Positions 12,913-61,721 of a DNA stretch of 64,000 nucleotides are shown here, one piece after another (the first letter of the stretch is position 1; each line of letters opens with the position of its first letter). The stretch lies in the IMG/VR virus record IMGVR_UViG_2651869695_000003; one strand, 5' to 3'. This stretch comes from a virus. Its lineage: Duplodnaviria; Heunggongvirae; Uroviricota; Caudoviricetes. The notes beneath the pieces were generated by a model. It had not been told where the DNA came from. It did no database searches and saw only the letters and a program-made list of their open reading frames with translations. Made by a program: the position numbers and the translations under genes.

Positions 12913-12920
12913 GAATCTTC

Positions 12921-22231: not shown

Positions 22232-22234
22232 TCC

Positions 22235-24531: not shown

Positions 24532-24534
24532 GGA

Positions 24535-29532: not shown

Positions 29533-29592
29533 ATAAACTCCGTACATAAAAAATCCCACCGGAGTGGGACTCATTAACAGATTAATTTTTCA

Positions 29593-33691: not shown

Positions 33692-33845
33692 CGGTGTTCA
33701 CCTTTTTATTCACGCGCCGGATATCACCCGCTGCTTCACGGCGCAGCCAGTAGTTGTTCTCGTCAACATTTCGCCCTTCGGCGGGCAAAAGGTCACCGCG
33801 GGCAGGGTCAGGCACTGACCGCCCTTTAACAGGTTTCACAAACAT
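33675..33845 (-). CDS. Small protein upstream of sheath (copy 2)
   Basis: Inverted copy of 12921..13091. Confidence 0.35.
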   Translation of the reverse strand: MFVKPVKGRSVPDPARGDLLPAEGRNVDENNYWLRREAAGDIRRVNKKVNTDDDKL

Positions 33846-33853
33846 GAAGATTC

Positions 33854-34941: not shown

Positions 34942-35302
34942 ATTCGCCCAGCTCCGTACACTCCAGCAGCAGAAAGCGCCGCGCCCCGTTCAGATCGCGC
35001 TGACGTTTCACCCGGTACACACTGTCACCGCAGACCACCTCATAATCAGCGGTGATCCCCCGGCGGTAACGAATGGTGATGTAATGGGTGATGGCGTCCC
35101 CGGTCTGCGCGGTTTCCTGCCAGGTGGTGGCACTGGTCTGGATAACCTTCGCCCATGTCCGGAACGTAACCGGGTATTGAGGCTCCACGCCAAAGTTATC
35201 CGCGGGCATATCCACCCGCTGGCGGATCAGGACGCGTTTATTCAGTTCACCGGGGTCCGGCAGAATGTAGGTTGCGCTGGTCTGCGCCTGACGAATTTTC
35301 AT
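34892..35302 (-). CDS. Head closure protein (copy 2)
   Basis: Identical inverted copy of 11464..11874. Confidence 0.55.
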   Translation of the reverse strand: MKIRQAQTSATYILPDPGELNKRVLIRQRVDMPADNFGVEPQYPVTFRTWAKVIQTSATTWQETAQTGDAITHYITIRYRRGITADYEVVCGDSVYRVKRQRDLNGARRFLLLECTELGECGQSHGGNNDDFLFAR

Positions 35303-35622
35303 TGCGGAAAGTACCTGTACGGGCCGACAAGCCAGCCAAAACTCTGCGGCATGTCGAGTTTCTCCACTTCCGTAACCGACGAGCGGTTTTCGTAAAAATG
35401 GCTGATAAGCATCAGCATCCCCAGACGAATATCATCCGGCAGGTGCAGCCCGTCCGGATCGCTGTCCGGAATGGTTTCATCCGGTGCATAGAGCTTCCGG
35501 TTCAGATACGTTTCCGTCCGCTTTTGTGCCGCACAGGCCAGCAGTTGCAGATGGCGGTCATCAGCATCGAAATCCTCATCCAGCCGGAGTTGGGCTTTAA
35601 TCTCTTCCATTGTCAGAAGCAT
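35299..35622 (-). CDS. Head-tail connector gp6-like (copy 2)
   Basis: Identical inverted copy of 11144..11467. Confidence 0.6.
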   Translation of the reverse strand: MLLTMEEIKAQLRLDEDFDADDRHLQLLACAAQKRTETYLNRKLYAPDETIPDSDPDGLHLPDDIRLGMLMLISHFYENRSSVTEVEKLDMPQSFGWLVGPYRYFPQ

Positions 35623-35624
35623 AC

Positions 35625-35825
35625 TCAGCCCTCTTTACTGGTCGTGGCTTTTTTCTCTTTTGCCGCTTTACTGCTTTTTGCACTGATTCCGCGCTCTGCT
35701 AACCCGGCCTGAAGTGCAATCTCCTGCACCCGGGCAGGAAGCGCCCCGTCGTCATACTCACCGGCCCGAATGACCTCAACACGCATACCGTCCGGTGACC
35801 ATTTCAGATCTTGTTTCAGGATCAT
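35625..35825 (-). CDS. Small hypothetical head-module protein (copy 2)
   Basis: Identical inverted copy of 10941..11141. Confidence 0.4.
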   Translation of the reverse strand: MILKQDLKWSPDGMRVEVIRAGEYDDGALPARVQEIALQAGLAERGISAKSSKAAKEKKATTSKEG

Positions 35826-35874
35826 GATTCTTCACCCGTCAGAACAGGGGGCGCGGTTCCGCGCCCCTGAGTGA

Positions 35875-37080
35875 TTACGCCGCTGCAATCTTCAGCAGTT
35901 TGATGGCCTGCGAATCGACCAGCATCCCGCCGGTGCGCTTGGTGGTATAAAAACCGACAAACGGTTTATTGGTGTACGGGTCACGCAGAATGCGGGTGCC
36001 GATACGGTCAACGATGGTGTAACCCCGTTTGAAGTTACCAAATGCAATGGCTTTCGCATCAGCGGCGATATCCGGCATCTGTTCGTTTTCAGCGATACCG
36101 TAACCCGCCAGAGAGGACGGCTGCCCCAGTTCCAGCCCCGGACGCCACAGATAGTTACCCTCGGTGTCTTTCAGCAGACGGATGGCAAACAGGCTGTTGT
36201 TGTTCATCATGAACTTCGCGCCAGTGCGGTGTGCCTTACGCAGCGTGTAAATCAGTTTGATAATGGCGTCTGCGGTCACCGCGGTCGCTTCGCCGGATAC
36301 AATATGCTGAAGTTTGCCGAACGCCCGGATCTTATCGGTTTCATCAGTAGATTCATACGCCAGGAACCCTTTTGGCTTCTTGGTACCATCGCCGGTGGTA
36401 AAGGCAATTTCTTCCTGTTCGGCAAATTCGGTCGCCAGCTCGCTGTTGATCCAGGCCTCCACGTTGAAGAAGGCATCGTCCAGCATTTTCTGGGTAGCCT
36501 GCGGGTTGCCGTAGATTTCCCCCATGAGAGGTTCAATCAGCTCCAGTCTGGAGGTGGCAGTCTGGGATCGCGTATCCGTTTCCCCCACCCATCCGGAAGC
36601 CGTACCGCCCAGATTCACCAGTTTTTTGTAGTCGGAACCGCCAACGGTGATCACCGTGGCTTCCTGACGCATCACCACTTCATCTTTCAGCAGGTTAAGA
36701 ATGTTGCGATCCAGTTCTTCCGGCACGGCGTAGCCACCGTCTTCATCGGTGCCCACCTGCAATGCCTTACGCTCCAGATCGCGCAGACCGTCTTCACGGC
36801 CTTTACGCAGGAAGCCCACAAACGCCTCTTTATGCTCGGTGGCCAGTTTATTTTGCGATCCACCTGCCGGACGTTTCAGCTCAAGCAGCTCTTTTTCAAG
36901 GTCGCTTTTGAGATTTTCCAGCTCGCTGAGTTTCCCGTTCAGGGTTTCCACCTGTCCGGCAAGCTTGCCTTTTTCCTGCTCAATCGCATCCACGCGCTTG
37001 TCGTTCTTTGCTTTGAAGTCGTCAAACTTCTGCTGCAGCTCCTGCGCGACCTGTTCGACATCTTTAATATCTACCGCCAT
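35875..37080 (-). CDS. Major capsid protein (copy 2)
   Basis: Identical inverted copy of 9686..10891. Confidence 0.85.
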   Translation of the reverse strand: MAVDIKDVEQVAQELQQKFDDFKAKNDKRVDAIEQEKGKLAGQVETLNGKLSELENLKSDLEKELLELKRPAGGSQNKLATEHKEAFVGFLRKGREDGLRDLERKALQVGTDEDGGYAVPEELDRNILNLLKDEVVMRQEATVITVGGSDYKKLVNLGGTASGWVGETDTRSQTATSRLELIEPLMGEIYGNPQATQKMLDDAFFNVEAWINSELATEFAEQEEIAFTTGDGTKKPKGFLAYESTDETDKIRAFGKLQHIVSGEATAVTADAIIKLIYTLRKAHRTGAKFMMNNNSLFAIRLLKDTEGNYLWRPGLELGQPSSLAGYGIAENEQMPDIAADAKAIAFGNFKRGYTIVDRIGTRILRDPYTNKPFVGFYTTKRTGGMLVDSQAIKLLKIAAA

Positions 37081-37094
37081 CGTATTTCTCCTGA

Positions 37095-37745
37095 TTAGAA
37101 GTTCAGATTTTTCAGTGCATTCAGTGCAGAGCTCACATCCTCAGCGTCGCGCAGGGACAGTGCGCTATAGCCCCCGGCCATGAATGCTTTGGCCTGGGTA
37201 CGGGAGAGTCCGACATCACGCAGGACTCTTTCGATTTTTTTCTGTTCGGGGATTTCCCCGCGAGCCAGCGCGTTCTTGACGTCGCTGATCCGTGCCTCGT
37301 CGTTAGACGGGAACGTCACCAGACTGACTTCCCAGAGGTCGATTTCTTTCAGCAGAAAGGCTTCTTTCGTCCGGTCGTATTCCCAGTCCTTCAGGACGTA
37401 CCCAATAGAAAGGCCGGTTAACGAACCGGCCTTCATGTGTGCATGTGCGCGTTTTGCCAGGGGATCATCATCAATGAGCAATCGCCCCCTGACGTAAAGC
37501 CCGACATCGTCTTCCTTCATTTCGGTGTAAACACCGATGGGCTCATCCATGCGGTGCTGCCAGAGCAGCGCAGGTAACGCTTTTCTGTCACTCCACGCCC
37601 GCAGGGAAGCAGCAAATGCCCCGGACATCACCACATCATCGTGGCTGTCCTTTACACCAAAGACGGAGCCATACCCTTCAAACTCACCGGAGTCACTGAC
37701 AGATTTCAGACTCAGCGGTACATCAAGACGTTGTTTCGTCTGCAT
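37095..37745 (-). CDS. Prohead protease (copy 2)
   Basis: Identical inverted copy of 9021..9671. Confidence 0.8.
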   Translation of the reverse strand: MQTKQRLDVPLSLKSVSDSGEFEGYGSVFGVKDSHDDVVMSGAFAASLRAWSDRKALPALLWQHRMDEPIGVYTEMKEDDVGLYVRGRLLIDDDPLAKRAHAHMKAGSLTGLSIGYVLKDWEYDRTKEAFLLKEIDLWEVSLVTFPSNDEARISDVKNALARGEIPEQKKIERVLRDVGLSRTQAKAFMAGGYSALSLRDAEDVSSALNALKNLNF

Positions 37746-38964
37746 TGGCGTTATCCTTCTGCTTACCGGCTTTACTGCCATCGGAGGGTTTCGTGGTCAT
37801 ATTCATCGGCGTGAGATAGACATCCCCACCGGGACGCGGATTCATATCTTCCAGGTCGCGGCAGTCATTGGGAGAGTAAATTCCCCAGTTGATACCGGTG
37901 GCGTAGGCTTCAAAACGGGACTTCATATCCCCGCGCAGTAACGCCCCGGCGTTAAATTTGGCGTAATAAACGCCCTGCTTACTTTTTCGTACCAGTCCGG
38001 TGTTGATCCGCTGCTCAATGCGGGTCAGATACGGCACCAGTGAATAGTTGATAAATCCCAGCCCCAGCTCTTCGATATTGTTGAAGGTGGCGCGATCGGT
38101 GTTCTGCACCATGTGCAATGGCACCCGGAACAGACGACAGATTTCTTCAAGCTGAAACTTGCGGGTTTCCAGGAACTGGCTGTCCTCGGCGTTCAGCGCC
38201 ATCGACTTCCAGTCCAGCCCCATCTCAAGGATCATCGGGCGGTGAGCATTGCCAAGCCCGGTGTGACGCTCCTCAAAATCTTTCTTCAGGCGCTCATAAG
38301 CCTGATCCGACAGCGTCTGCTCTGTACGCAACACACCGGACGTCACCGCACCATTGCTGAACAGTCTGGCCCCGTGCTCTTCGGTCGCAGCTGCCAGCGA
38401 TATTGCCTCGCGGGCATAGGCGATGGGATTCAGTCCCACCAGACCGTCCAGCGTCAGCGTGCGCACATGCCAGATATCTTCCTGGCTCAGTACATCCGTG
38501 GAGCCGTCCGGGAATGTGACCTGATAGACCGGCTCCCAGCTACTGTTAAGCTTCGGTACCACACAGCCGGGATCGACGGGCAGCAGTTCAGCCACTTCGC
38601 CAAATCCTTTCACTTTGTAGGCGTAAAAGTTTCCCCGCAAGCACAGACAGGTGACCACCAGCTCCCAGAACTCCTGCGGCGTCATATAGCCATTGGGATG
38701 CGTGGAGATCAGCTTATGCAGACGCTCGCCGGTGGCTCTCTTTTTCAGGCTGCCGTTCAGGTGATACAGATTGCAGGGCAACATCCCGACCGACTCTGCC
38801 AGCACCCTGACGCAGGAAAAAACCGCCGTCAGTCGCATGGCCCGCTGGCTGCTGATCTGCTTTCCGATATAGGTGTCGTAGGACAACCCGATAGCATCCG
38901 CCAGCTCTGCTGGCGTGGTCACTGGTGCGTCACTTTTTCGTTGAAATAATCCCGAAAAGAACAC
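37723..38964 (-). CDS. Portal protein (copy 2)
   Basis: Identical inverted copy of 7802..9043. Confidence 0.85.
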   Translation of the reverse strand: MFFSGLFQRKSDAPVTTPAELADAIGLSYDTYIGKQISSQRAMRLTAVFSCVRVLAESVGMLPCNLYHLNGSLKKRATGERLHKLISTHPNGYMTPQEFWELVVTCLCLRGNFYAYKVKGFGEVAELLPVDPGCVVPKLNSSWEPVYQVTFPDGSTDVLSQEDIWHVRTLTLDGLVGLNPIAYAREAISLAAATEEHGARLFSNGAVTSGVLRTEQTLSDQAYERLKKDFEERHTGLGNAHRPMILEMGLDWKSMALNAEDSQFLETRKFQLEEICRLFRVPLHMVQNTDRATFNNIEELGLGFINYSLVPYLTRIEQRINTGLVRKSKQGVYYAKFNAGALLRGDMKSRFEAYATGINWGIYSPNDCRDLEDMNPRPGGDVYLTPMNMTTKPSDGSKAGKQKDNANADETTS

Positions 38965-39146
38965 TATTTACCTCCGCCGACAGACGACTGTGTACGGTCG
39001 AGATATCGCGCCACCAGCCACGACCAGAACAGACACAACGCCCCGGCAACAACAAACCCCGCCGGGGGATAAATCAGCCAGGCACCATACGCCAGCAAAA
39101 GCGCCCCCAGCACGCCCACCAGAGGCGCGAGAATCAGCATGATCAT
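38964..39146 (-). CDS. Small hydrophobic protein (copy 2)
   Basis: Identical inverted copy of 7620..7802. Confidence 0.35.
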
Positions 39147-39157
39147 AATTACCTCAG

Positions 39158-40891
39158 TTAAAGCGAGCGGATCCCATAGGACTCAATGTGGTCAGACAGC
39201 GTGTCTTCTTTCTCGTACAGCATGGCTCTGCCAACCGCCATAATCAGCGCAACTGCACCATCGATTTTGTTTTCCGCCTGCTCTTTGACGGGCTTCACCA
39301 CATCATCGTTACCCGGAATGGTTTTGCCGACCACGTTGCCGATACACCAGGTCATGATGGGATTGCCATCATGATGAAAGCGCCCCGATTCAATTGCCGC
39401 TTCCAGCTCTTTCATCGGATCGGACATGTTGGTGTAGTTCTGAATGATAGTGATGGGGTTCAGGTCTTCATCAGCAAGGTCATGTGACAGCCCGGTCGCC
39501 CCGAAGGGGTCGATGGGTGACTCACTGACCGGGCTGATTTTGTTCGCCGCTTTGGCCTCCTCGAGGATGTAGCGATAATCCACTTCCGCACCATCGGTAA
39601 CGGTCAGAACGCCCATTTCCACCCATTTCTGAAAGCGTTCGGCTGTCCGTCGATCTTCATTTTTCTCGACGCTGTACACCGTGTCATACGGTACCCAGAA
39701 ACGCGGGGCCACACTGTAGTAATGCGTTTTACCGTCAATCTCGCGGGTATAAAGTCGCGCCATGCTGTTCATATCCAGTTTACGCGCCAAGTCAAAGGCC
39801 AGAATGCACGGCTGCCCCTCGAACTGCTCAAGGGTCAGTGATTTATCCTCGCAGCTCTGCCAGCTCACCAGGTTGAAATACGCCGAACGCGCCGACACCC
39901 AGATATTGAGGTGTTTTGTTTTAAAGACGTTTGCCAGACGGGCGTTATTTTTCGCACGCTGTTGCTGACTTAACAAAAATTCGCGATAAACCGACACGCC
40001 AATATTTGGATTGGCTTTTTCCAGCACCTGCGGGTCGGTCCAGTCGTCACCTTCATCAACGGTATAGATGATCCCGAACAGTTCATCGTTAGGCACCGAC
40101 CCGTTGAGCATCTCGATAACTTCCCGCCGCTTGTCGTAGCACGGCCCCTCAATGTTGTACCCGGCAGTAGTAATGGCCCACATCAGTGGCTGACGTCGCG
40201 CCCCCATCCCGGTAAGCATCGTGGTGTAAAGCGCATCGGTGGCGTGCTCGTGATATTCATCCACCACCGCACAGTGGGGTGATGAACCATCACCGGGGTT
40301 ACCGATCAGCGGTTCAAACCGCGCGCCATCCTCCGGACGGTTCATGTTTGAGGCGTTAACCTCAATCCCGAACGCTTCCGTCAGCATTGGTGTGCGTTTA
40401 CACATCAGTCGCGCCGGGCGAAAGACTTCCCATGCCTGTTTCTCCGTCGTGGCACCGGAATACACTTCCGCGCCGAACTCGTTATCACAGGCAAAACAAT
40501 ACAGAGCGACACCGGCAGAGATTGCCGATTTGCCGTTCTTACGGGGGATTTCGGTATACACCTCCCTGAAGCGGCGCAGCCGGGAGCCTTTATTGACCCA
40601 GCCAAACGCGCAGCAGATCACAAAGAGCTGCCACGGCTCCAGCGTGATGGGCATCCTCTTGAATGCCCACTCACCCTTGGTGTGCGGCAACAGCTGAATA
40701 AATTTGGCGGCCCGTTCAGCCAGGTCCTTGTCGAAGCGGTAACGAAACGACTTACTTTTTTCCGCCATCAGGTCATCAAGATGGCGCTGGCAGGCCTGAA
40801 TCACAAACTGGCAGGCCACAATCTTTCCGCGCACGACATCCCGGGCATACTGATTGGCAGCATTTACGTTGGGGTAAGATTTCCGGCTCAT
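39158..40891 (-). CDS. Terminase large subunit (copy 2)
   Basis: Identical inverted copy of 5875..7608. Confidence 0.9.
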
Positions 40892-41391
40892 GATTCGATG
40901 ATTTTCAGAAACGGGTTAGTGGCTTTCTTCTTCCCCGCCAGGCCAATCAGACGCTGGCGGCTGCTGGGGTCGAGTCCGAGCATTGCCCCCGTACTGCTCA
41001 TCTCGGACTCCTGTTCTTTTTTGGCGGTCAGCTCCGGATTTTTGACCATACCGCCCATTGCACCGGTGATGGTGTTGCCCTGTCTGGCAATATTTTTCAC
41101 GGCACGTCGCCAGAACTCGTAGGCCACGCACCACCGCTCAAGCACCGCGAGGTCAGTCACGCACAGCAGGCCCTGACCGCAGAGTTCTTTGGTTGTCAGT
41201 TGCCACATGATCGTGGCGAGAGGGAGATCTTCTTCAGCGAACCACTCCGGTGGCTCAACACCTTTGATGGGCGTAAAAACAGGTTCATCTTTGTTCAGGG
41301 CTCGCTTGCCGGGATTTCCGGCCAGCGCCTTGCGCGCCGTTGGCTTGGGGCGACGCCCGGAACGCCCCGTCGTTCCAGCCATATGCGGCAC
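40888..41391 (-). CDS. Terminase small subunit (copy 2)
   Basis: Identical inverted copy of 5375..5878. Confidence 0.7.
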
Positions 41392-41421
41392 TCCTGGTTA
41401 AATTTCATTTTTCGCGGGTAT

Positions 41422-41481
41422 AAAAAAACGATGGGGCGGGCAGTCCGGAAGACGTCAGGTCACAGGGATGTGACCCGCCCC
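41422..41481. other. GC-rich nested palindrome / candidate cos region (copy 2)
   Basis: Inverted copy of 5285..5344. Confidence 0.3.
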
Positions 41482-41507
41482 TCCCCTCAGACAGTTGAGA
41501 GTTATTA

Positions 41508-41858
41508 TCACTTTAACCGTTCACGGGCCGTCTTCGCCTTATGACACGGCCAACACAGACTCTGCAGATTACAGTCGGCATCAGTGCCGCCATGCGCTTT
41601 AGGGATGATGTGGTCAACGGTTTTCGCCTCACGCACCACACCGGCACGCAGACATAACTGACATAAACCTTTGTCACGCTTCAGCACACGCGCGCGGATA
41701 GCGTCCCACTTCGAACCATAACCGCGCTGATGACGGGACTGACCTGGCTTGTATTGCTTCCAGCCTTCGCTTTTGTGGCTTTCGCAGTAGCCTGACGGGT
41801 CTGTGGTTGTAGAGCGGCAGCCGCGAACACGGCAGGCTTTTGGGGTTCGTGGTGGCAT
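41508..41858 (-). CDS. HNH endonuclease (copy 2)
   Basis: Identical inverted copy of 4908..5258. Confidence 0.75.
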   Translation of the reverse strand: MPPRTPKACRVRGCRSTTTDPSGYCESHKSEGWKQYKPGQSRHQRGYGSKWDAIRARVLKRDKGLCQLCLRAGVVREAKTVDHIIPKAHGGTDADCNLQSLCWPCHKAKTARERLK

Positions 41859-41937
41859 TGGTAAGCTCCAATAAAAAAGCCACCATCGATTGCTAGTGGC
41901 TTAGCATCTACTAATGTTACTAATGTGAAGAGTAGGT

Positions 41938-42696
41938 TTATTTTTTCTTCTTATTTAACTTATCTAAATTGACGGGATCTTTCCCTGTGGCAGCTAAACA
42001 CCAAAAAGAATAACTCTTTTGCATGACATAGGTTCTAATTCTCTCTAATGTTTCATTATATTTTTTCTCAACAACCTGTATCGCATGTTCAAATAAATTA
42101 ATCATATCAACATGCTCGTCCTCGACACCAATCATGCTCAGTTGTTTTCTATCTGTCACTGCTTGATAAAATGTTTTCCCATTTTTCCTTATTAGTAACA
42201 ATGAAGTTTCTGCTGACTCATAGTCTTGGTTGCCGCTATGTGCTGCAAAATTATGCCTGTAGTTAATAATACAGTCATGCAACCCAAAATATTCAGAATC
42301 AAGCCAATCACGCTCCATCTTTAACTTTCTCCCTTTAGCTTCAGAGAAAGCTTTACCATAAAACGTTAGGCTTGCCACAAATAACGCTCTAATTTCACTT
42401 GATAAATCTAGATCAAGTATATTCCCGTATAACTTGCCATCTGTCCTTAATTCGTTTCTCCCTGCCAGTTCATTAGCTATTTGGTACCACTCTTTAGCAC
42501 TTTTTAAGTCCCTATGAATTAGGGACAGTGAAGATGCTCTATCGGCAATACGCCCACTCAATTTTATGCGATCTACAATTTCATTATTGAATGTATAAAC
42601 CGCTTTAAATTCCCCCGTTTCGGAATCAATATAATATTCAACATCTAACCCTTCATATGATTCACACCCGGGACCTTCTAATTTTTTTCTTTTCAT
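41938..42696 (-). CDS. Hypothetical AT-rich moron protein (copy 2)
   Basis: Identical inverted copy of 4070..4828. Confidence 0.45.
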   Translation of the reverse strand: MKRKKLEGPGCESYEGLDVEYYIDSETGEFKAVYTFNNEIVDRIKLSGRIADRASSLSLIHRDLKSAKEWYQIANELAGRNELRTDGKLYGNILDLDLSSEIRALFVASLTFYGKAFSEAKGRKLKMERDWLDSEYFGLHDCIINYRHNFAAHSGNQDYESAETSLLLIRKNGKTFYQAVTDRKQLSMIGVEDEHVDMINLFEHAIQVVEKKYNETLERIRTYVMQKSYSFWCLAATGKDPVNLDKLNKKKK

Positions 42697-42777
42697 ATAG
42701 AATATCCATATACGTTTCAATTCTCAGTCAGCATAGTAGAAAAAAAAGATGTCCAGATCCATACATCGAAAGCAATT

Positions 42778-43242
42778 TTATTTTTCACACTGACTAGAGA
42801 TATAGTCCTGCAATGCTCTTATCTGTTTATAACTGATTTCAATTCTCTCTCTGAGGGTGAAATAATCCCGTTGAGCGGTGTCAGTAAGTCGGGGGGCGGT
42901 AGCATCATCCAGGCTGGTGGTAATGGTCGTTGATTGCACTCTCGGGCAACTAGCGGCGAGGAACAGCCGCTTAGTGCCAACAGCAACATCACGCTGAAGC
43001 TGTTCAATAGTTGCTTTAGCATTTGCAAGTTCTCCGGTGTATTTCGCATCGAGCGCAGAAACATCACGCTGGCGCTGCTGCATCTCAGTAATGGTGGCGT
43101 TCGCCTGGCTGAGTTTTTCCTTCGCTTTATCGCGCTGTTCTTTGTAGGCGATGGCGTTATCACGATAATGATTAACAGCCCATGATAGGCAGACGATGGT
43201 GCAGATAACCAGAGAGGACAGAATCGCAGTTACTCTACTCAT
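42778..43242 (-). CDS. Rz: i-spanin Rz (copy 2)
   Basis: Identical inverted copy of 3524..3988. Confidence 0.8.
42819..43022 (-). CDS. Rz1: o-spanin Rz1 (copy 2)
   Basis: Identical inverted copy of 3744..3947. Confidence 0.75.
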
Positions 43243-43717
43243 ATAGCTGAATTTCTCTGACCGTTCCGCCCGATTCTTTGAATTTTTCAATCAGGCTGTC
43301 AACCTTATGTTCGAACTGACCATAACCAGCGCCCGGCAATGACGCCCAGATATTGCTGCAACGATCAATAGCCTGACGGATATCGCCGCGATCAATCATC
43401 GGTAAAGCACCACGCTCTTTAATCTGCTGCAATGCCACAGCATCCTGGCTTTTTGGAGAGAAGTCTTTCAGCCCAAGCTGCTTACGGTAAGCATCCCACC
43501 AGCGTGAAAGAAGCTGATAACGTCCTGCGGCTGTTGATTTAAGTTTCGGGTTTAGCGTGACAAGTTTGCGAGGGTGATCGGAGTAATCAGTGAACAGTTC
43601 ACCTCCGACAATAACGTCATAACCGTGGTTACGTGTCGGTTGTCGCCCGTTATCCGTTCCTTCTGACCATGCCACCATATCGAGGAAAGCTTTACGCTGG
43701 GAATTTAGTACCTGCAT
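43235..43717 (-). CDS. R: Endolysin, lambda R-type (copy 2)
   Basis: Identical inverted copy of 3049..3531. Confidence 0.85.
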
Positions 43718-43720
43718 AAA

Positions 43721-44047
43721 TTACTCCTTAGAGCCACCAAACTTATTACCGATTACTCTCATTGCAGCCCCACGAATAGCATCGACCCCGATCAGCCCAA
43801 CGCCGCCACCAATGGCAACAGAAAGAGATTTAGGCCATCCGACATACTCAAGAGCGGATGCAAAAGTCAGCGTCAGAGCACCACAGAGCAAAATCTCGAG
43901 CGTTTTTCGTTTCCAGCCACCACCACCGCCAAAATAGGCAATGCGCAAGCCAGCCATAACGATCGACATAATCACTGCGCCCAGCGGTGTGTCTCCACGC
44001 CACCAGCTCTGGACCAACTCCAGCCAGGTATTTGGGTTATGAGGCAT
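43721..44047 (-). CDS. Holin (copy 2)
   Basis: Identical inverted copy of 2719..3045. Confidence 0.7.
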   Translation of the reverse strand: MPHNPNTWLELVQSWWRGDTPLGAVIMSIVMAGLRIAYFGGGGGWKRKTLEILLCGALTLTFASALEYVGWPKSLSVAIGGGVGLIGVDAIRGAAMRVIGNKFGGSKE

Positions 44048-44190
44048 TTGTAGTTATCTCTCACCTCGCTGATACAGCAGGTGCAAATTGAGGGAACATC
44101 ATGTACCGCAAATCAGAAGCGGAAACATCAAAGAAGCCGAACCGATGGAGAACTGCGGAATAGGCCAGGACCAACGAATCCCCAGCCACA

Positions 44191-44221
44191 GAAACGACAA
44201 AACCCGCTCGACGGCGGGTTT
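44191..44221 (-). terminator. tR'-like rho-independent terminator (copy 2)
   Basis: Inverted copy of 2545..2575. Confidence 0.5.
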
Positions 44222-44343
44222 AAGCTGTGTGGCGAAGTAACCACTCTTAACAGATTACAATGTTTTTTGCGGACCGCGCTAATGATTTCCTCTTTTTTTT
44301 GTTGTATTTTTCACACGGTTGCTAAAATTATTTCGGATCGATA

Positions 44344-45285
44344 ATGAGTACAGAAAATAAGAATAAAACCAGGCGAGTGAGAGTTGGTTTTTTCACTGGT
44401 AATGGAAGCAAAAAATATGGCACATCTGCTGCAAAACTAGCCTTTGAGCAAATGACCACAGCAGATACTGTAACTTTTCCAATAACTTACACAACAGACA
44501 CCCCAAGTCGAGGGTTAAAGTTAGTTATTCTTCAAAAAGATACCACACTGCAATGTTACTTTGGTTACGTATCGTGGAGAAGGGAATGCCTACTACCGTT
44601 CATCGAGGATGCTACAGGTAGTGAGAGAACAATTCCTTTAAATGATAAAGATTCTGTAGTTGAAAGAACATATTTTATCTATTACTACGAAACGGACTTA
44701 TTAGCTATGACCCTCAACCATATAGGGCCCAAAGTAAATGATCTGGCATTCATTTTGTATAACAAAACTGATTTAAAAAGCGTCACTTTTGAAGCCATTT
44801 GGAAACAAGAGAGCATGAAGGAACTGCTTGAGGACGGAAATATCCTACGTAGTTTCGATCTTATAGTTGCTGCTCCAAGAAACTTTAACAAAGCTAATTA
44901 TAAGATTAAAAACCCTTTAGCTAATGAAATTATTGACATGGTTGTTGGTATGGGCGGGTCGCATCTAAGATTAAATATGCGAGGTCGGATTCGCCCGAAA
45001 AAACAAGGGTTTAACTATCTAAAAACTTCTGTCACCGATGCTATTAAGGAACTACTTGAACTTTTTCCAAAAGGTTCTGGAGGTCTAAAAATTAAAAAAA
45101 TTGATGTAACAGAGCCATCCAATAGAACGCCCAAAAGTCTACTTGACCAAGTATTGGTCAGTACAAAGACAATCATTGTCAAAAGCGGTTATCCATCCGA
45201 TTCTGATATCAGAACGGCGATGATATCTGCTAAAATTGATAACGCGAACTATCTTGCACAGTATGAGCTCGCTAGCAGAGACTAA
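44344..45285 (+). CDS. Hypothetical 313-aa cassette protein (copy 2)
   Basis: Identical inverted copy of 1481..2422; here in context of the complete prophage. Confidence 0.55.
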   Translation: MSTENKNKTRRVRVGFFTGNGSKKYGTSAAKLAFEQMTTADTVTFPITYTTDTPSRGLKLVILQKDTTLQCYFGYVSWRRECLLPFIEDATGSERTIPLNDKDSVVERTYFIYYYETDLLAMTLNHIGPKVNDLAFILYNKTDLKSVTFEAIWKQESMKELLEDGNILRSFDLIVAAPRNFNKANYKIKNPLANEIIDMVVGMGGSHLRLNMRGRIRPKKQGFNYLKTSVTDAIKELLELFPKGSGGLKIKKIDVTEPSNRTPKSLLDQVLVSTKTIIVKSGYPSDSDIRTAMISAKIDNANYLAQYELASRD

Positions 45286-45294
45286 TAACCAAGC

Positions 45295-45756
45295 ATGGAG
45301 GACACAATGAGAGAATTAGCCACTTTTCTCTGGAAATGCGTCCTCTGGATTCTGTTGACCTATGCAGCGACAAAACTGTTTAAACCGATGAAGCATGCTG
45401 ACGTACTCACAACAGCGGGGGTGCTCTCGACTATATCAGGCATCCTGTTTGGTTTTGTTCTGGCTGCAATATCTATATTTAGTAGTGCAAACAGCGATAA
45501 GGAAGGAGCAATTAATGCCCTTAAGCAAAACAACGTGTTACCAACTCTGGTAAATAGATTACTTTCAACAGGGTTAACTCTCATCGTCGCATGTATATTT
45601 CCATTGATAGCGATGTTTCTACCTGATGATGTTATTGTTGCGGGCAAACCTATTGATTTCCTGTTCATACTGTTAGGCTTATCCTCCCTTATAATTTCGC
45701 TATATACCTTCGGAAGGTGTTGGTTAGTGTTACGAAAAATCTTCCCCCACTTGTGA
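45295..45756 (+). CDS. Four-TM membrane protein (cassette gene 2, copy 2)
   Basis: Identical inverted copy of 1010..1471. Confidence 0.55.
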   Translation: MEDTMRELATFLWKCVLWILLTYAATKLFKPMKHADVLTTAGVLSTISGILFGFVLAAISIFSSANSDKEGAINALKQNNVLPTLVNRLLSTGLTLIVACIFPLIAMFLPDDVIVAGKPIDFLFILLGLSSLIISLYTFGRCWLVLRKIFPHL

Positions 45757-45791
45757 CAGGTTGGCCTCATATGGGGCCAACCTGTGCAACC

Positions 45792-46160
45792 CTAAGCGTC
45801 CATTTCAAGGTTAAAATCCAACATTGAAAGGCAACCATCAATAAATCCTTCGGCTAGTTGTATTTCTATGCGTACCAATTTTTCATCCTTTCCACGCACC
45901 TTTGCAATCTTACGCTTGGATATTCTGTATAAATAATGTGCCACAAGCAGCGAGTGCTCATCTGGCTTTTTTTGCTTTAGACGAGCAAGACAACCTTCAA
46001 TAATTAATGCATCACTATCTGAACAAGCCTGACGTGTTTTGCTTGTGTAGGGAAGAAGCCCCTTAAACCCAGCAGCTATAGGCGAATAGTCTACTCCAGA
46101 ACTATCACTCGCCGCCCATGCTCCCCAACGCTCCAGAACCATCTGAATATCACGCATCAA
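45792..46160 (-). CDS. Antitermination protein Q (copy 2)
   Basis: Identical inverted copy of 606..974. Confidence 0.7.
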   Translation of the reverse strand: MMRDIQMVLERWGAWAASDSSGVDYSPIAAGFKGLLPYTSKTRQACSDSDALIIEGCLARLKQKKPDEHSLLVAHYLYRISKRKIAKVRGKDEKLVRIEIQLAEGFIDGCLSMLDFNLEMDA

Positions 46161-46174
46161 CTTTCTCCACCAAA

Positions 46175-47170
46175 TCAGGCCAACACCCCAATCGCCAGCG
46201 CGCGATCGATAAAACGAAATATCAGCTCCAGTTGGGAGCCATACTTCTCTTCAAATGCCACGGTATCCGCATGCAGCTCGTCGTGATGCTTTCTGCACAA
46301 AGGCAACACAAAGAGGTCATGCGCTTTTGTACCCATTCCACCCTGACCGTGACCTATCAGGTGGTGGGGATCATCAGCAGGCTTTCCACAACATGCACAC
46401 GGCTGTGTCTTAACCCAGCGCGTGTACTTTTCATTAACCCAGCGGCGGCGTTTTGGGCGTAACATAAAAGACTCCAGCGACTCCGGATCCACTTTCAGCG
46501 CCAGCACCTTTTTCGCTTTATCCTGGATAATGCTGGTGGCAGGAACCGAAGGCACAAGGTCACTTTCCCGGGTGACCGCCTGCACAACAGGCTTCGGTAA
46601 TCTCAGTGCCTTACGGGCTGCACTTTCCGGTAAGGCATCCGCCAGGTCATTACGAATCAGCCACCAGCACAGTTCCGGTATTGTCACAACGTGACTATCA
46701 TCAAAACCGAGATCCCGACGCACAACAGACAACACCCAGCGGGCACAGTTATCCGTTGCCATTGATTCCAGCCGTTCCGTGAACTGATCGCGCAGCTGGT
46801 TATCGCAGTGCCAGCACAAACGGATTGCGCCCGGAGCGTGTCGCATTGTTGTCATGTTCTCGCTGTGCCAGTCGGAATGAGGCCACTGGCAGCCTTTTTC
46901 ACGAAGTAACCAGCTTTCAAGACATTCCACGCCACCAGCACGACGGATCACTGCCTCATTGCGGAATACGGCCCGAACGGCAGGATCATCCGCCAGCGGT
47001 TGTGATGCCGCCGGAACGGCACCACTGGCGAAAGATGAATAACGTTCCGGCTCAGGCTCCAGCAGGACACGCCCCTGCATAAACAGGGGCATCAACTCTG
47101 AACCTGGCCTGAACAATACGATCCCCATACGCGGGGCAATTTCAGGGGTCAGTAGTGCTCTCACGGTCAC
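46175..47170 (-). CDS. DUF968/YdfU-like prophage protein, full length (331 aa)
   Basis: C-terminal 196 aa duplicated at 1..591; Cys/His-rich C-terminus. Confidence 0.5.
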   Translation of the reverse strand: MTVRALLTPEIAPRMGIVLFRPGSELMPLFMQGRVLLEPEPERYSSFASGAVPAASQPLADDPAVRAVFRNEAVIRRAGGVECLESWLLREKGCQWPHSDWHSENMTTMRHAPGAIRLCWHCDNQLRDQFTERLESMATDNCARWVLSVVRRDLGFDDSHVVTIPELCWWLIRNDLADALPESAARKALRLPKPVVQAVTRESDLVPSVPATSIIQDKAKKVLALKVDPESLESFMLRPKRRRWVNEKYTRWVKTQPCACCGKPADDPHHLIGHGQGGMGTKAHDLFVLPLCRKHHDELHADTVAFEEKYGSQLELIFRFIDRALAIGVLA

Positions 47171-55018: not shown

Positions 55019-55126
55019 AAATCAGCACGTACGAATTCAAACTCTGCCATAAAAGAACATATAAGTAATTTATTAACATATAGATATAGGTTATATTACA
55101 AATTGAAAAATTATTGGAGAGCAACA

Positions 55127-55993
55127 ATGAATCAAAATCCATTCTCATTCTATGACTTTCTTGGATATTTAATACCAGGTGGTTTTTTTATCCTATTAAT
55201 GTATTTCTGTGGTTTGACATTCGATCTAGATATTGTTATTGACTTAAGTGAATTGCTCAGAGGTCAAAGTCAAATCTTTGGCATTTTGAACTACGCTTCA
55301 ATAGTTATTATATCTTATATAGCTGGACATTTTATTTCTATCACGTCAGCATTTTTTATCGAAAAATACATGAATAAAGAATTAGGATATCCTTCCAAAT
55401 ATCTATTTAAAAAATTGATAGATACCTCAGAAAGCATTTGTAGCCCATCATGCGATGAGAGAAGCGCTGATAAAAAAACAAAAATAAAGAATCGCATAAT
55501 CAAATGCGTATTATGTCCAATAATACTATGGGATTTTATAACACAAAAACTATGTTATTCTCAATCTCTACCATTTCATTTAGCTAATACAACATGGTTA
55601 ATGATCAAAGAAGGTTATGAGAAAAAGTTCATAACAAATCGCCAATTATTACAAGATAAAAACGGACTTGATGATGATCTCTTCAGATTGGCATATCATT
55701 ATGTTTATGAGTTTTCAAAACAACATCAAACAAAAATTCAAAACTATGTTGCATTATATGGTTTTTGCAGAAACATATGTTTAATCTTTATAATTTCATT
55801 TTGGGTATCAGTTCCAACCTTTATTTATCGATTATGTACTCATAGTGATTATCTTTATAGTTTACTTTCAATAATGCTTAGCTTTTTCTTCGTCTATGTC
55901 TTCTATGTTGGTTTTGTTAAATTTTATAGAAGATATACTTTAGAAGTATTAATGGCATTTGCTGTACTTCAAAGTAACGACACTATTCGTTAA
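55127..55993 (+). CDS. AT-rich multi-pass membrane protein (cargo)
   Basis: Several hydrophobic helices; GGAGA 6 nt upstream of ATG 55127; very low GC. Confidence 0.5.
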   Translation: MNQNPFSFYDFLGYLIPGGFFILLMYFCGLTFDLDIVIDLSELLRGQSQIFGILNYASIVIISYIAGHFISITSAFFIEKYMNKELGYPSKYLFKKLIDTSESICSPSCDERSADKKTKIKNRIIKCVLCPIILWDFITQKLCYSQSLPFHLANTTWLMIKEGYEKKFITNRQLLQDKNGLDDDLFRLAYHYVYEFSKQHQTKIQNYVALYGFCRNICLIFIISFWVSVPTFIYRLCTHSDYLYSLLSIMLSFFFVYVFYVGFVKFYRRYTLEVLMAFAVLQSNDTIR

Positions 55994-56034: not shown

Positions 56035-56241
56035 ATGCTGAACCTCGATTGTGTTCCTATCTCAACTTATTGCAAAGAAACTGGCGAAACTCCTGAAGCA
56101 ATAAACAAACGTGTACAGCGCGGTGTTTGGCGTGAAGGTGTTCAGGTTTTAAAGGTTGAAGGCGTTAAGGAGAGGTGGATTGATCTTAGTGAGGTTGCAA
56201 AATGGGCCAGACAAAACTGCTCAAACTACCGCGCGGCGTAA
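56035..56241 (+). CDS. Excisionase-like DNA-binding protein
   Basis: Small basic protein immediately upstream of and overlapping integrase. Confidence 0.55.
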   Translation: MLNLDCVPISTYCKETGETPEAINKRVQRGVWREGVQVLKVEGVKERWIDLSEVAKWARQNCSNYRAA

Positions 56242-57377
56242 CAATCAGGAAACACCGCCAGGGAGAAACGATCAATATAACTTTCACCTACAAAGGAGTT
56301 AGATGTCGTGAGCCACTTTCCAATCTGGAAGTAACACCAAAGAACATTAAATACGCCGAGCGTACACTCGGCGAAATCCATAATAAGATCGAAAGGGGAA
56401 CATTCATTTATGCAGAATATTTTCCCCGTTCTGCTCGTTTGAAAATTTTTGGTAATGCTGCCACTGGCAAAACGGTAAAAATGTACCTGGACGAATATCT
56501 TGAAATCTGCGAAACGAGGAAACTATCACCATCCACGATTGGTGGTTATAAAAAATGCCGGAGTGCGTTAGCCTCGCTTCACATTTGCCCTGCAAGTGAA
56601 TTAACACCAGCAACCCTGAAAGCGTGGATTCAAAGCCAAAAAACGACCTTAAAAACCATTCGCAACCAGTTATCTTTCCTGCGGTCAGCACTTGATGAAG
56701 CCGTAACCGATGGGGTACTTCAAATTAATCCCGTATCGTTAGTAACTGCTTCGCGCTACCAAAGTGATAAGTCAGAAGCAGAAAGCAGCTACGTGGTTGA
56801 TCCGCTATCACCAGCAGAAGTTGATGCATTACTAGCAGCAGCCGGAAACAAACAATGGGAGAATCTGTTCCGGTTCGCTATACATACAGGTCTGCGTAGT
56901 TCTGAATTATGTGCCCTTCGATGGCGTGATATTGACTTTGTAGGGATGACTGCCCACGTCCAGAGCGCCAGTGTTGTTGGTGTAATCAAAGGTACCAAAA
57001 CAAAAGCAGGTACTCGAAAAGTTGAACTGACAGATGAAGCAATGTCTGCACTAATAAATCAGAAACCGTTCACTTTCATGAAGGACGCGACTGTCTTTGA
57101 AGATCCAAAAACCAATAAACCTTGGGCCAGCGCAGACGCCATAAGAAAGAAGGCATGGGTGCCAACTTTACGTAAAGCCGGAGTCCGTTACCGTAATCCT
57201 TATCAAACTAGACATACATTTGCTACAAAACACATTAGTCAAGGTGTTAATTTGTTTTGGTTAGCCGCTCAAATGGGGCATAAAGGACCAGAAATGCTAT
57301 TTAGGCATTACGGCCGTTATCTTAAAGATTATGATAACAATAGCACACACAATCATTTGATAAATTGTACTAATTAA
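56202..57377 (+). CDS. Tyrosine integrase (phage integrase family)
   Basis: C-terminal catalytic region with R...HxxR...Y pattern (TRHTFATKHI ... LFRHYGRY). Confidence 0.9.
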   Translation: MGQTKLLKLPRGVTIRKHRQGETINITFTYKGVRCREPLSNLEVTPKNIKYAERTLGEIHNKIERGTFIYAEYFPRSARLKIFGNAATGKTVKMYLDEYLEICETRKLSPSTIGGYKKCRSALASLHICPASELTPATLKAWIQSQKTTLKTIRNQLSFLRSALDEAVTDGVLQINPVSLVTASRYQSDKSEAESSYVVDPLSPAEVDALLAAAGNKQWENLFRFAIHTGLRSSELCALRWRDIDFVGMTAHVQSASVVGVIKGTKTKAGTRKVELTDEAMSALINQKPFTFMKDATVFEDPKTNKPWASADAIRKKAWVPTLRKAGVRYRNPYQTRHTFATKHISQGVNLFWLAAQMGHKGPEMLFRHYGRYLKDYDNNSTHNHLINCTN

Positions 57378-57416
57378 ATGATAATCTCTACTTCTGATTG
57401 GAAGTAGAGATTTCAC

Positions 57417-58235
57417 ATGAATAACACAGATTTAATAAAAATGTTAGGTTACTCAATTACCACTACCGACTTCATAGCCATAATAAGTGTCATAATTGCA
57501 TTTTTTGCAATGTACCAAACATGGCAGCAAAGAATAATTTCAAACAAACCTCAAATCTTACCTAAGAATATAAAATTCACATGGATGCACAGAGATAACT
57601 TGAAATTATTTAAGAACATAGAAATATCACCAACCACTTTGAATATAGAGCTTCTCAACATAGGTCTTGGCCCAGCTATAAAAATAAACCACTACTGGTC
57701 TGAAGAGTATGAGAAATATATTAAGATAAACAAATTCAAAATAGATAATAACAACACACAAAAATCACATGAGATATTTTTGCAAAATGAAGAGTTTTTT
57801 ACAATCAAAGACAACAATAACTTCTTGAATGTTGATATTTTTGGTAGAGGTCCGCAAAAACATAATAGCTTTCAAAAAAAAGGAACTTTGATAGAATTTA
57901 TAACTCCGAATATTAAAGACAAAGAGAAAACAACCATACCATTTCCCCCATTGGTGCCGGAATTAATTGGTAATTATCTTGTAACCACCTCCATCTCATC
58001 GTTTATAGGGCCGGACCTTATCCTTGAATATAGAGATGTAAACAATAAGAAAAGAAAGAAAATTTTCACAACAGAATTTAAGAGCGTATCTTTTTACGGA
58101 AATGGCTTAGATCTAATTTTAGACATAGATATTCTTTTCACATCCAAACAGTGTTGGACACAGGTTGTCCTAGAAAGGATACGCAAAAGCTACGCAGATT
58201 TTATGGATGAGCATGATTTTAATAAAAACAGATAG
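57417..58235 (+). CDS. AT-rich hypothetical protein with N-terminal TM anchor (cargo between int and att)
   Basis: 272-aa ORF, Asn/Lys/Ile-rich, very low GC. Confidence 0.5.
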   Translation: MNNTDLIKMLGYSITTTDFIAIISVIIAFFAMYQTWQQRIISNKPQILPKNIKFTWMHRDNLKLFKNIEISPTTLNIELLNIGLGPAIKINHYWSEEYEKYIKINKFKIDNNNTQKSHEIFLQNEEFFTIKDNNNFLNVDIFGRGPQKHNSFQKKGTLIEFITPNIKDKEKTTIPFPPLVPELIGNYLVTTSISSFIGPDLILEYRDVNNKKRKKIFTTEFKSVSFYGNGLDLILDIDILFTSKQCWTQVVLERIRKSYADFMDEHDFNKNR

Positions 58236-58242: not shown

Positions 58243-58279
58243 AATTCGGACTCGGGTTCAACTCCCGCCAGCTCCACCA
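58243..58279 (+). other. Partial tmRNA (ssrA) 3' end = prophage att core / junction
   Basis: TTCGGACTCGGGTTCAACTCCCGCCAGCTCCACCA matches my recollection of the E. coli tmRNA 3' end; no tmRNA body upstream. Confidence 0.6.
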
Positions 58280-58326
58280 AAATTCTCCATCGGTGATTAC
58301 CAGAGTCATCCGATGAAGTCCTAAGA

Positions 58327-58358
58327 GCCCGCACGGCGCAAGCCCTGCGGGCTTTTTT
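58327..58358 (+). terminator. Rho-independent terminator (native ssrA-downstream terminator)
   Basis: GCCCGCA...TGCGGGC hairpin followed by TTTTTT. Confidence 0.5.
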
Positions 58359-58412
58359 GTGCCTTGAATTTGTCCCGCGAAGTCTGATGCCAACTAATTA
58401 AATCCGAACCTT

Positions 58413-58465: not shown

Positions 58466-58540
58466 AACTATGGAAACCCGGCAATGGCAAGACAAACCAA
58501 ACCTCTATCCGTTAAAGAAATCGAATCTGCTAAACCCAAG

Positions 58541-60485
<1,945 letters not shown>

Positions 60486-61721
60486 AGTGACACCAAGGAA
60501 GCGGACTACGTTCTCTATGATGGCGATGGCCTTGAGCTACTTATCAAATCCAGCGGGAGTAAAATCTGGCAGTTTCGCTACATTCGCCCTGTCACCAAGA
60601 AACGTGCGAAGAAGAGCATAGGCCCCTACCCGTCAGTTACGCTTGCCGATGCCAGAAACTACCGGGCAGAGTCACGCTCTCTCCTGGCGAAACAAATCGA
60701 TCCACAGGAACATCAGCAAGAACAACTTCGCAGTTCGCTTGAAGCTAAAACCAATACTTTCCAACTCGTGGCTGAACGATGATGGAATGTGAAGAAAGCC
60801 AGCGTGACAGAGGACTATGCCGACGATATCTGGCGCTCTATTGAAGAGATGTCTTTCCTGCAATTGGCGACGTTAGCGTTACAGATATTAAAGCTCACAC
60901 ACTGGTTCAGGCCGTCCAACCGGTTCAGGCCAGAGGAGCAAAACCGTTTGTCGCCTGTGCCAGCGCATTAATGAGGTCATGACCTATGCCCAAAACACAT
61001 GGCTGATTGATGCTGTTCCCAGCGTTAATATTGGTAAAGCCTTCGAGAAGCCTCAGTAAAAGAACATGCCCAGCATTCGACCGGATCAGCTACCTCAACT
61101 GATGCAGACAATGCGAACAGCCAGCATTAGCCTTTCCACACGCTGCCTGTTCATGTGGCAACTTCTTACTATTACCCGCCCTGCCGAAGCGGCTGAAGCT
61201 CGCTGGGAAGAGATAGACATAGAAGCACAAGAGTGGAAGATTCCTGCAGCACGCATGAAAACGAACCGCGACCATACTGTTCCATTGTCAGATGAAGCAA
61301 TTGCGATACTGGAGATGATGAAGCCGTTAAGTGGAAATCGAGAATTTATCTTTCCCAGCCGCATCAAGCCAAACCAGCCGATGAACAGTCAGACCGTAAA
61401 CGCATAGCTAAAACGCGCAGGTTTTGGTGGGGTGCTCGTTTCACACGGCCTGCGATCTATCGCCAGTACAGCCCTTAATGAACAAGGCTTTCCGCCTGAT
61501 GCCATTGAGGCAGCACTTGCCCATGTAGACAAGAATGAAGTTCGTCGCTCTTATAACCGCAGCGATTACCTGGAGCAGCGTCGTCCAATGATGCAGTGGT
61601 GGACGAATTTTGTTCAAGCGGCAGATCGTGGAAGTATTATTGAAGGTGGGATGAAAGGAATGCGATTGGTTGGATAACGATTCACTCTGCCTACGTTATT
61701 ACAAATAGCGTCCGATTAGAG

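Follow-up and report, generated by a model that had tools for sequence, protein, structure and literature searches.

A hypervariable gene between the integrase and the ssrA attachment site of a lambdoid prophage is a candidate superinfection-exclusion or abortive-infection gene

The IMG/VR virus record IMGVR_UViG_2651869695_000003 (Caudoviricetes) was analyzed over a stretch of 64,000 nucleotides, hereafter called the window. It contains an open reading frame (ORF) at 57417..58235 on the plus strand, with an ATG start, 272 amino acids (aa) and a stop codon at 58233-58235, whose product is a member of PHROG 7259. The host element is an LLS-like lambdoid prophage integrated in the 3' end of ssrA, the transfer-messenger RNA (tmRNA) gene. 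We propose, with a probability of roughly one half, that the gene encodes a superinfection-exclusion or abortive-infection protein expressed in the lysogen. The protein would be held at the inner membrane by a single N-terminal helix, with a short acidic tail outside and the body in the cytoplasm. The body would be a non-enzymatic beta-sandwich, a kind of fold that binds other macromolecules, and on the cytoplasmic side of the membrane it would bind a component of an incoming phage. The outcome would be either a block of genome entry or early development, that is, exclusion, or failure of the membrane, that is, abortive infection. Which phages are recognized would depend on the hypervariable middle of the protein, and the protein would thus guard the lysogen, and hence the prophage, from other phages. 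Expression in the lysogen and protection are suggested because the gene is under selection, hypervariable and mobile, occupies a slot that elsewhere holds AbiL or DarTG, appears to have its own promoter, and was retained after decay of the phage around it.

The ORF is a genuine prophage accessory gene under purifying selection, which acts on the whole 272 aa and not on the end alone. The original prediction described a very AT-rich frame rich in Ile, Lys and Asn with an N-terminal transmembrane anchor, lying as the last gene between the integrase and the att core. The ORF listing, composition, hydropathy and structural model agreed with this description throughout. The protein contains 13.2% Ile, 9.9% Lys and 9.6% Asn, with an isoelectric point of 9.0. 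Across 57400-58000 the G+C fraction (GC) is about 0.30, and the flanks have 0.43-0.50; the ORF itself has 0.31, against 0.43 for the integrase gene (int) and 0.46 downstream, and the same low-GC contrast was found in six other loci. Because stop codons are AT-rich, an open frame of 272 codons is very unlikely here. At this base composition one codon in 12.5 is expected to be a stop, and the chance that 272 in a row stay open is 1.5e-10; 5,000 shuffles yielded no open run longer than 153 codons. Comparison with a 92%-identical allele from Citrobacter freundii gave 0.25 synonymous (dS) and 0.034 non-synonymous (dN) substitutions per site, with a dN/dS of 0.13 that was alike in the N-terminal, middle and C-terminal parts. 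A chance or decaying frame within an AT-rich spacer would fit the missing domain annotation, the weak Shine-Dalgarno sequence (GAGA) of this allele and a frameshifted copy on one viral contig. That reading is effectively refuted by the selection and family data, namely the chance probability, the dN/dS value, the 1,538 homologue clusters with conserved motifs described below and a confident structural model; the non-coding spacer that the original prediction had named as its alternative is thereby excluded. In the frameshifted copy (IMG/VR UViG 2734481921_000001, reverse strand 1..833) no more than the final 130 codons are open, and its conserved tail, arm repeats and core are still intact.

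The gene belongs to a large family without annotation. The protein matched the PHROG 7259 profile (function unassigned) with E=1.3e-35, residues 17-272 aligning with positions 13-277 of the 277 in the profile. A word-indexed search returned 14 clusters, all 'hypothetical proteins' from Enterobacteriaceae; one was the 92%-identical C. freundii protein and the others were 26-33% identical over the full length. A profile search against 1.84 billion cluster representatives gave 1,538 proteins at E<=1e-3, 737 of them at E<=1e-10. These relatives are mostly of 240-280 aa, and their alignments begin at residue 1. In an alignment of 126 sequences, N81, G83 and A87 were invariant and form an N-x-G-x-G-x-A turn, and A25, Q38, R39, P45, G85, W94, P164, P177 and D207 were nearly so. 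The allele carried by Escherichia coli of sequence type 131 (ST131) occurs on at least 999 contigs, and one Klebsiella allele on at least 1,000. Distant members lie beside insertion sequence (IS) elements or in a conjugative-type region, and always as single genes. Within the phage collection, tblastn matched Escherichia phage LLS alone, and megablast gave no match to the ORF. Scans of the protein with Pfam, NCBIfam and PADLOC (PADLOC-2023/PADLOC-DB 2.0.0) gave sub-threshold noise, and so did Pfam and PADLOC scans of the 126 aligned members, with one chance-level PADLOC match (E=0.009). A profile search found no relative among the sequences of the PDB. In the GTDB representative genomes neither the exact DNA pattern of the conserved C-terminal tail nor relatives by a peptide-pattern scan were found, and the gene is therefore missing from species-representative genomes.

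The gene is one allele of a hypervariable cassette that accompanies this integrase type, and not an arbitrary insert, a point that the original prediction did not contain, any more than it did the promoter, the hairpin and the candidate arm-type sites described below. Homologous loci were retrieved from Klebsiella, E. coli, Enterobacter, two Citrobacter species and metagenomic contigs, together with the viable lambdoid phage LLS. The order was the same at every one of them: xis (68 aa), int (391 aa), about 40 nt, the gene, about 10-45 nt, and the ssrA core. Between family-bearing loci the integrases are 84-96% identical, whereas the ORF products share 29-37% identity, save one pair at 53%. Averaged over pairs of loci, nucleotide identity stays near 0.8 in int, drops to 0.2-0.55 over a stretch that begins 40 nt before the end of int and runs on through the ORF, and returns to 0.66-0.79 in the final 80 nt of the ORF and in the core. 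The same integrase type (at least 80% nucleotide identity) was present in 407 of 5,426 complete E. coli genomes. This allele (99.5% identity) occurred in three of the 407, and a second family allele, typified by ST131 strain 751 and matching the family profile with 1.4e-60, in 50. Two other family alleles searched in the complete E. coli genomes were not found. The presence/absence comparison across related prophages, put forward with the original prediction as a check, thus leaves at least 350 of the 407 integrase-bearing genomes with neither of the two alleles. The gene is dispensable, being replaced in close relatives that carry the same integrase type.

The alternative contents of the slot were examined in five further E. 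coli genomes. Strain XH990 carries AbiLi/AbiLii (PADLOC, 4e-101 and 5e-29), UMNF18 carries DarT with a NADAR antitoxin (Pfam DarT, 5.8e-23), and 13C1079T carries a three-gene set with a STAS-like (DUF4325) member assigned by Pfam. The slot of CFT073 holds two reverse-strand hypothetical genes, and that of ST95-32 an 82-aa ORF with a 272-aa ORF having multiple predicted membrane segments; none of these matched a known family. Because the alternative cargo includes AbiL and DarTG, the slot can be regarded as a defense-type hotspot, as in P2, P4 and other temperate elements. The interval between int and att had been predicted to be a position for horizontally acquired cargo such as defense, exclusion or virulence factors. 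Its use as a cargo position is evident from the sister prophages, a role in defense or exclusion would be consistent with their contents, and virulence found no support. An assignment of the 127-aa CFT073 cargo protein as HEPN-like, made by eye, was supported by neither Pfam nor PADLOC and was dropped. The 13C1079T set (locus L031, 4165..6035, reverse strand) includes a protein weakly similar to a histidine-kinase-like ATPase and has no PADLOC match; it may be another uncharacterized candidate system. A second AT-rich ORF lies just upstream of xis at 55103..55993 (+). It encodes 296 aa with several hydrophobic segments at a GC of about 0.28, matches PHROG 12528 (function unassigned, E=9e-174), and is weakly similar to Csx27, an accessory membrane protein of type VI-B CRISPR systems (PADLOC 1.4e-5; under the cutoff in NCBIfam). 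Some sister prophages, among them CFT073 and L008/L013, have an unannotated 288-aa ORF of similar size at the equivalent position, and others have different genes there; this position may be a second variable cargo slot.

In C. freundii the gene has outlived the remainder of its phage. A prophage remnant of about 3.2 kb in GCA_032192595.1 (locus L035, 659..3863) lies between two ssrA att cores. A DUF4236 gene is present in it, int is reduced to about its final 230 nt, and the intact 92%-identical ORF is preceded by the promoter and hairpin described below. Such retention would also fit a lysogenic-conversion factor unrelated to phage defense, a membrane protein that alters host physiology such as envelope stress, colonization or bacterial competition. 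Like classical morons, the gene is peripheral in the prophage and low in GC and has a predicted promoter of its own, and its alleles are common in clinical lineages, as the ST131 and Klebsiella counts show. On the other hand, the protein has neither a signal peptide nor a surface-exposed domain and its body is predicted to be cytoplasmic, a fall to 29-37% identity within modules that are otherwise nearly the same is more characteristic of arms-race genes than of physiological genes, and the alternatives in the slot are anti-phage systems. We therefore regard a conversion factor of this kind as unlikely.

The predicted architecture of the protein is consistent with a membrane-tethered binding protein. 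A structure was predicted with AlphaFold2 (AF2) from the 126-sequence alignment, with a predicted local distance difference test score (pLDDT) of 85 and a predicted template modeling score of 0.80. The model consists of a transmembrane helix (residues 16-42), strands in 47-94, a helix at 98-115, five short strands in 128-175, a helix at 179-191, three long strands in 195-243 and a C-terminal helix at 247-265. The transmembrane helix is encoded by 57462..57542 (+) and coincides with the single hydrophobic segment of the protein, where the Kyte-Doolittle 19-residue maximum is 2.13 (residues 14-32). The body of about 230 aa is predicted to be a beta-sandwich domain with three helices and without sign of an enzyme. 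On the structural check suggested at the outset, the model is confident, and fold searches of BFVD and the PDB gave nothing specific. In the model the fold is only generically immunoglobulin (Ig)-like, for which the seven-strand beta-sandwich domains of the PapD, MSP and ASH type serve as the comparison. Over the family, the 13-residue N-terminal tail averages 0.3 Lys plus Arg and 1.1 Asp plus Glu, and the 15 residues C-terminal of the helix average 3.0 Lys plus Arg. Lys plus Arg was higher on the C-terminal side of the helix in 124 of the 126 members. By the positive-inside rule, the short acidic N-terminal tail would lie outside and the globular body in the cytoplasm.

The region between int and the ORF carries conserved signals that may set the expression of the gene apart from that of the phage operon. 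The best promoter-like site in 55900-58500 is a sigma-70-like element, TTGATA-17 nt-GATAAT, at 57357..57385 (+), which matches the consensus at 10 of 12 positions and overlaps the last codons and the stop of int. A TTGnnn-17-(A/G)ATAAT element was found at the equivalent position in all 11 family-bearing loci, despite their differing integrase C-terminal peptides, and we predict it to be the ORF's own promoter. Immediately past the -10 element every locus contains a hairpin of 10-13 bp; in the window it is a 13-bp RNA hairpin at 57383..57412 (+), between the int stop and the ORF start. When nine loci were folded, the free energies were -14.5 to -19.6 kcal/mol with z scores of -4.3 to -7.8, and none of 300 shuffles per locus attained the observed energy. 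The upper stems are wholly different between loci and yet remain paired through compensatory changes. Several of the pairs are G-U, workable on the plus strand only, which indicates an RNA structure. The stem base is of one kind throughout: a purine tract (AGAGAU, GAGGA or AGGGAU) is paired there with a tract of pyrimidines (AUCUCU, AUCCUC or AUUCCU), and this purine tract, 6-9 nt ahead of the start codon, is the Shine-Dalgarno sequence.

These features suggest a logic of expression in which the gene is made in the lysogen from its own sigma-70-type promoter within the last codons of int. Transcription starting 6-8 nt past the -10 element would begin within the 5' arm of the hairpin, and transcripts from this promoter would therefore lack the masking arm and be translatable. 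On read-through transcripts from xis-int, the full hairpin would hide the ribosome-binding site and translation would be poor; the hairpin on such RNA may also stabilize or end the int message. With the ssrA terminator downstream, the conserved promoter-like element would define a transcription unit. The same region bears on another possibility, that the gene is a phage-side competition or counter-defense gene acting during infection or induction, where it would block a host defense or exclude co-infecting phages. The gene is retained in the viable phage LLS, it stands at the end of the early-left operon so that read-through from xis-int is possible, and hypervariability suits any conflict interface. 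However, the conserved hairpin is predicted to sequester the ribosome-binding site precisely on read-through transcripts, and the promoter downstream of the 5' arm, taken with the hairpin, argues for expression independent of the lytic operon. The gene is also kept in a remnant without any lytic genes. A phage-side role thus appears quite improbable.

The 3' end of the ORF overlaps candidate recombination sites. Two direct repeats, AAGGATACGC (58175-58184) and AAGCTACGC (58187-58195), span 58175..58195 (+); their TACGC cores are 11 bp apart, and they encode R-I-R-K-S-Y-A of the protein. A pair of (A)AG-x-TACGC-like repeats was found 82-62 bp upstream of the core in all loci, whatever the cargo of the slot. 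The repeats are constrained as DNA, because they are kept in CFT073, XH990, UMNF18 and 13C1079T, where the stretch is non-coding. In addition, the 14-mer AAAGGATACGCAAA recurs at two further places: in phage LLS it is found on the other arm of attP, and in an E. coli lysogen that carries this allele it is found at attL. The repeats are good candidates for the arm-type sites of attP, to which the integrase would bind. Between the core and the arm repeats the DNA is AT-rich, and inspection by eye showed no convincing match there to the consensus of integration host factor. The coding of R-I-R-K-S-Y-A by the repeats explains part of the invariance of the C-terminus. The tail that follows, D-F-M-D-E-H-D-F-N-K-N-R and the stop codon (58196..58235, +), appears to be constrained at the protein level, because nearly all DNA differences in it are silent changes at third codon positions. 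Over the 12 alleles compared, its consensus is D-F-(M/I)-x-E-H-D-F-N-K-N-(R/K), with residues invariant or conservatively replaced. The ST131 and LLS alleles do not have this conserved tail. The last 20 or so codons, by carrying the candidate attP arm sites, would fix the right-hand border of the exchangeable cassette.

From this overlap one might suppose that the gene is an accessory of the integration module, either because the ORF exists mainly for the attP arm sites in its DNA or because its product modulates Int/Xis or the ssrA junction. Members of the subfamily are always found directly beside this integrase type, the 3' end of the ORF contains two candidate arm-type repeats, and the R-K-S-Y encoded by the repeats is invariant. 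Even so, the arm repeats persist as non-coding DNA under other cargo, the great majority of integrase-bearing E. coli genomes have neither of the two alleles searched, and distant family members have no integrase nearby. Together with purifying selection over the entire protein and not the end alone, this makes an accessory role in integration very improbable.

An independent computational source points in the same direction as the proposed role in exclusion or abortive infection. WP_021574737.1, the RefSeq name of exactly this protein, is listed in Table S10 of DefensePredictor, a machine-learning survey of 2026, as a 'Predicted novel defense gene' with a log-odds of 5.47 (PMC13092281). The ST131 allele, WP_127490476.1, is likewise listed there with 8.59, and both accessions are among its 1,041 'predicted, uncharacterized' E. 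coli clusters (PMC13092281). The cutoff of that method was 4, and 45% of the 94 units tested were validated (PMC13092281). In our literature search the accession numbers and the PHROG identifier were absent from the main texts, and the sole mention was that in Table S10.

Several points weigh against a role in exclusion or abortive infection. Neither accession was found in the searched text of Table S6 of that survey, which gives the tested units (PMC13092281), where alleles may stand under other accessions. No phenotype is on record for any family member, and no PADLOC-2023 model, Pfam family or PDB sequence matches any of them. A cytoplasmic location, as predicted for the domain, sets the protein apart from several classical exclusion proteins with a periplasmic site of action. 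The gene would encode a single binding protein without an obvious effector, and the choice between exclusion and abortive infection is undecidable from sequence. The hotspot argument is one of guilt by association, and low GC with hypervariability would equally fit other conflict or host-interaction roles. A more specific version of the proposal, which we consider tentative and rather doubtful, is that the family constitutes a single-protein immune receptor. It would be a membrane-tethered Ig-like sensor whose hypervariable middle recognizes proteins of incoming phages, and the hairpin would tie it to lysogeny. Since its 3' codons would be common to the attP arm sites, the defense cassette and the integration machinery would be inherited and exchanged as one unit.

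Small prophage-encoded proteins expressed in the lysogen, such as HK97 gp15, P22 SieA/SieB, T4 Imm/Sp, lactococcal Sie2009 and streptococcal Ltp, are established exclusion proteins. The present protein resembles them in size, in its predicted membrane anchor, in being apparently non-enzymatic and in its location beside lysogeny and integration genes. It has, however, neither sequence nor specific fold likeness to them and no Pfam match at or above the curated cutoff, to SieB or to any other family, and unlike Sp, Ltp and Cor, which act outside the inner membrane, its large domain is predicted to be cytoplasmic. CBASS (cyclic-oligonucleotide-based antiphage signaling system) Cap15 and other effectors that combine a transmembrane segment with a sensor share the order of one or more transmembrane helices followed by a compact beta-rich cytoplasmic domain, and such an architecture could couple ligand binding to membrane disruption. 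Effectors of the Cap15 type need a partner enzyme that makes the signal, whereas the ORF stands alone in every context retrieved and has no PADLOC match.

At the level of the locus, the slot is similar to the P2 and P4 hotspots and the int-att cassettes of mycobacteriophages (see also PMC13586616): all are fixed edge slots bounded by conserved phage genes, with mutually exclusive cargo made up of known defense systems (here AbiL and DarTG) and unknown genes. The present slot differs in that it belongs to a lambdoid phage integrating at ssrA and is flanked by int on one side and an attP arm on the other, and in its recurrent occupation by a hypervariable single family with a conserved promoter of its own, a conserved hairpin and a 3' end placed in arm repeats. 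The closest phage counterpart is gene 31 of Escherichia phage LLS (PQ299149; PMC12315714), a family member with 26% identity (tblastn 2e-14). It shows the same xis-int-gene-attP(ssrA) order in an experimentally propagated lambdoid phage, as a different allele with a different C-terminal tail, and its annotation in the record is hypothetical protein only.

The neighboring genes and the att site agree with integration in ssrA. The tyrosine integrase of 391 aa is encoded at 56202..57377 (+) and matches Pfam Arm-DNA-bind_2 (1.1e-23) and Phage_integrase (6e-16); a 68-aa excisionase-like (xis) ORF at 56035..56241 (+) overlaps its start. The ORF under study begins 39 nt past the integrase gene and ends 21 nt ahead of a 23-bp ssrA att core, so it is, as predicted, the final gene 3' of the integrase before the core. 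The core, TTCAACTCCCGCCAGCTCCACCA (58257..58279), is identical to the 3' end of ssrA and occurs once in the window. It is part of an ssrA-like stretch at 58245..58279 (+), opening ten bases past the ORF stop, in which an imperfect copy of the T-arm is followed by the identity core. This stretch, TTCGGACtCGGGTTCAACTCCCGCCAGCTCCACCA, is a copy of the ssrA 3' end with one mismatch, a G-to-T difference in the phage-borne T-arm copy (58245-58256). It matches the annotated ssrA of thousands of E. coli genomes, and it gave a partial match to Rfam tmRNA (E=1.2e-6) under the gathering score, as expected of a fragment. The corresponding site is annotated as 'tmRNA pseudogene / attP' in the phage LLS record (PMC12315714). 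ARAGORN found no tRNA or tmRNA gene within the window. With a single core and no tmRNA gene, the junction is therefore attR, and the intact ssrA is beyond the window, at attL. Another E. coli genome carrying this allele has ssrA 43 kb away at the opposite end of the prophage. Across loci, the sequence past CCACCA depends on the host, and the sequence ahead of the core depends on the phage.

Downstream of attR, a terminator scan located the intrinsic terminator of ssrA at 58340..58362 (+), AAGCCCTGCGGGCTT followed by a T run, and this native terminator is likely to serve as the stop for transcripts of the ORF. In the ssrA-terminator region (58270..58358, +) Rfam also gave a weak and partial hit to IsrM, a small RNA of a Salmonella island. 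The hit scored 32 bits (E=5.6e-7), where the gathering score is 376, and it probably reflects common ssrA-flanking sequence rather than a small RNA gene. Farther downstream, in 58484..61677, a P4-type integrase gene similar to intA of CP4-57 begins at about 58484 (MARQTKPLSVKEIESAKPK...), is split by a minus-strand IS21-family element (istB 58607..59341, istA 59342..60406), and continues from 60459 onward. Two integrative elements thus lie in tandem at ssrA, one of which was inactivated by the IS. In strains Res13 and CFT073, the 'bacterial' flank past attR reads ATCATGATTGGACGGTG...GGATACGCAA..., which is nearly the same as the right arm of attP in phage LLS and the attL arm of the Res13 prophage. 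This suggests that such flanks were left behind by elements that occupied ssrA earlier, or that they are att arms standing in tandem there.

Elsewhere in the window, positions 1..22539 and 24227..46765 are perfect reverse complements over 22.5 kb with zero mismatches, position i pairing with position 46766-i, and the late genes for head, tail and baseplate are therefore present twice, head to head. The center, 22540..24226, is 1.7 kb of unique sequence in the region of the tail fiber and tail-fiber assembly genes, and resembles an invertible segment. The duplication is either a fold-back artifact of assembly or an invertase-mediated event.

The locus behaves like prophage morons and the defense hotspots of temperate phages, and the gene is best filed as an uncharacterized, prophage-borne candidate for defense or exclusion in an int-att hotspot. 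To this picture the present analysis adds the size of the family and its prevalence in ST131 and Klebsiella, the architecture of the cassette, a hairpin that covers the ribosome-binding site, and candidate attP arm sites that lie within coding sequence. The locus offers a compact example of a putative defense cassette placed between an integrase and its attP arm sites, where coding sequence and recombination sites would overlap, and of an RNA hairpin that may keep expression in the lysogen apart from expression in the lytic cycle. Should the family have no phage phenotype, the gene would be an ordinary prophage accessory gene. A family of about 1,500 clusters, carried by very common clinical lineages, has so far had no annotation. 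If its members prove to be anti-phage, they would add a single-gene, non-enzymatic, membrane-anchored type of defense, and this would bear on the choice of phages for therapy against ST131 and Klebsiella.

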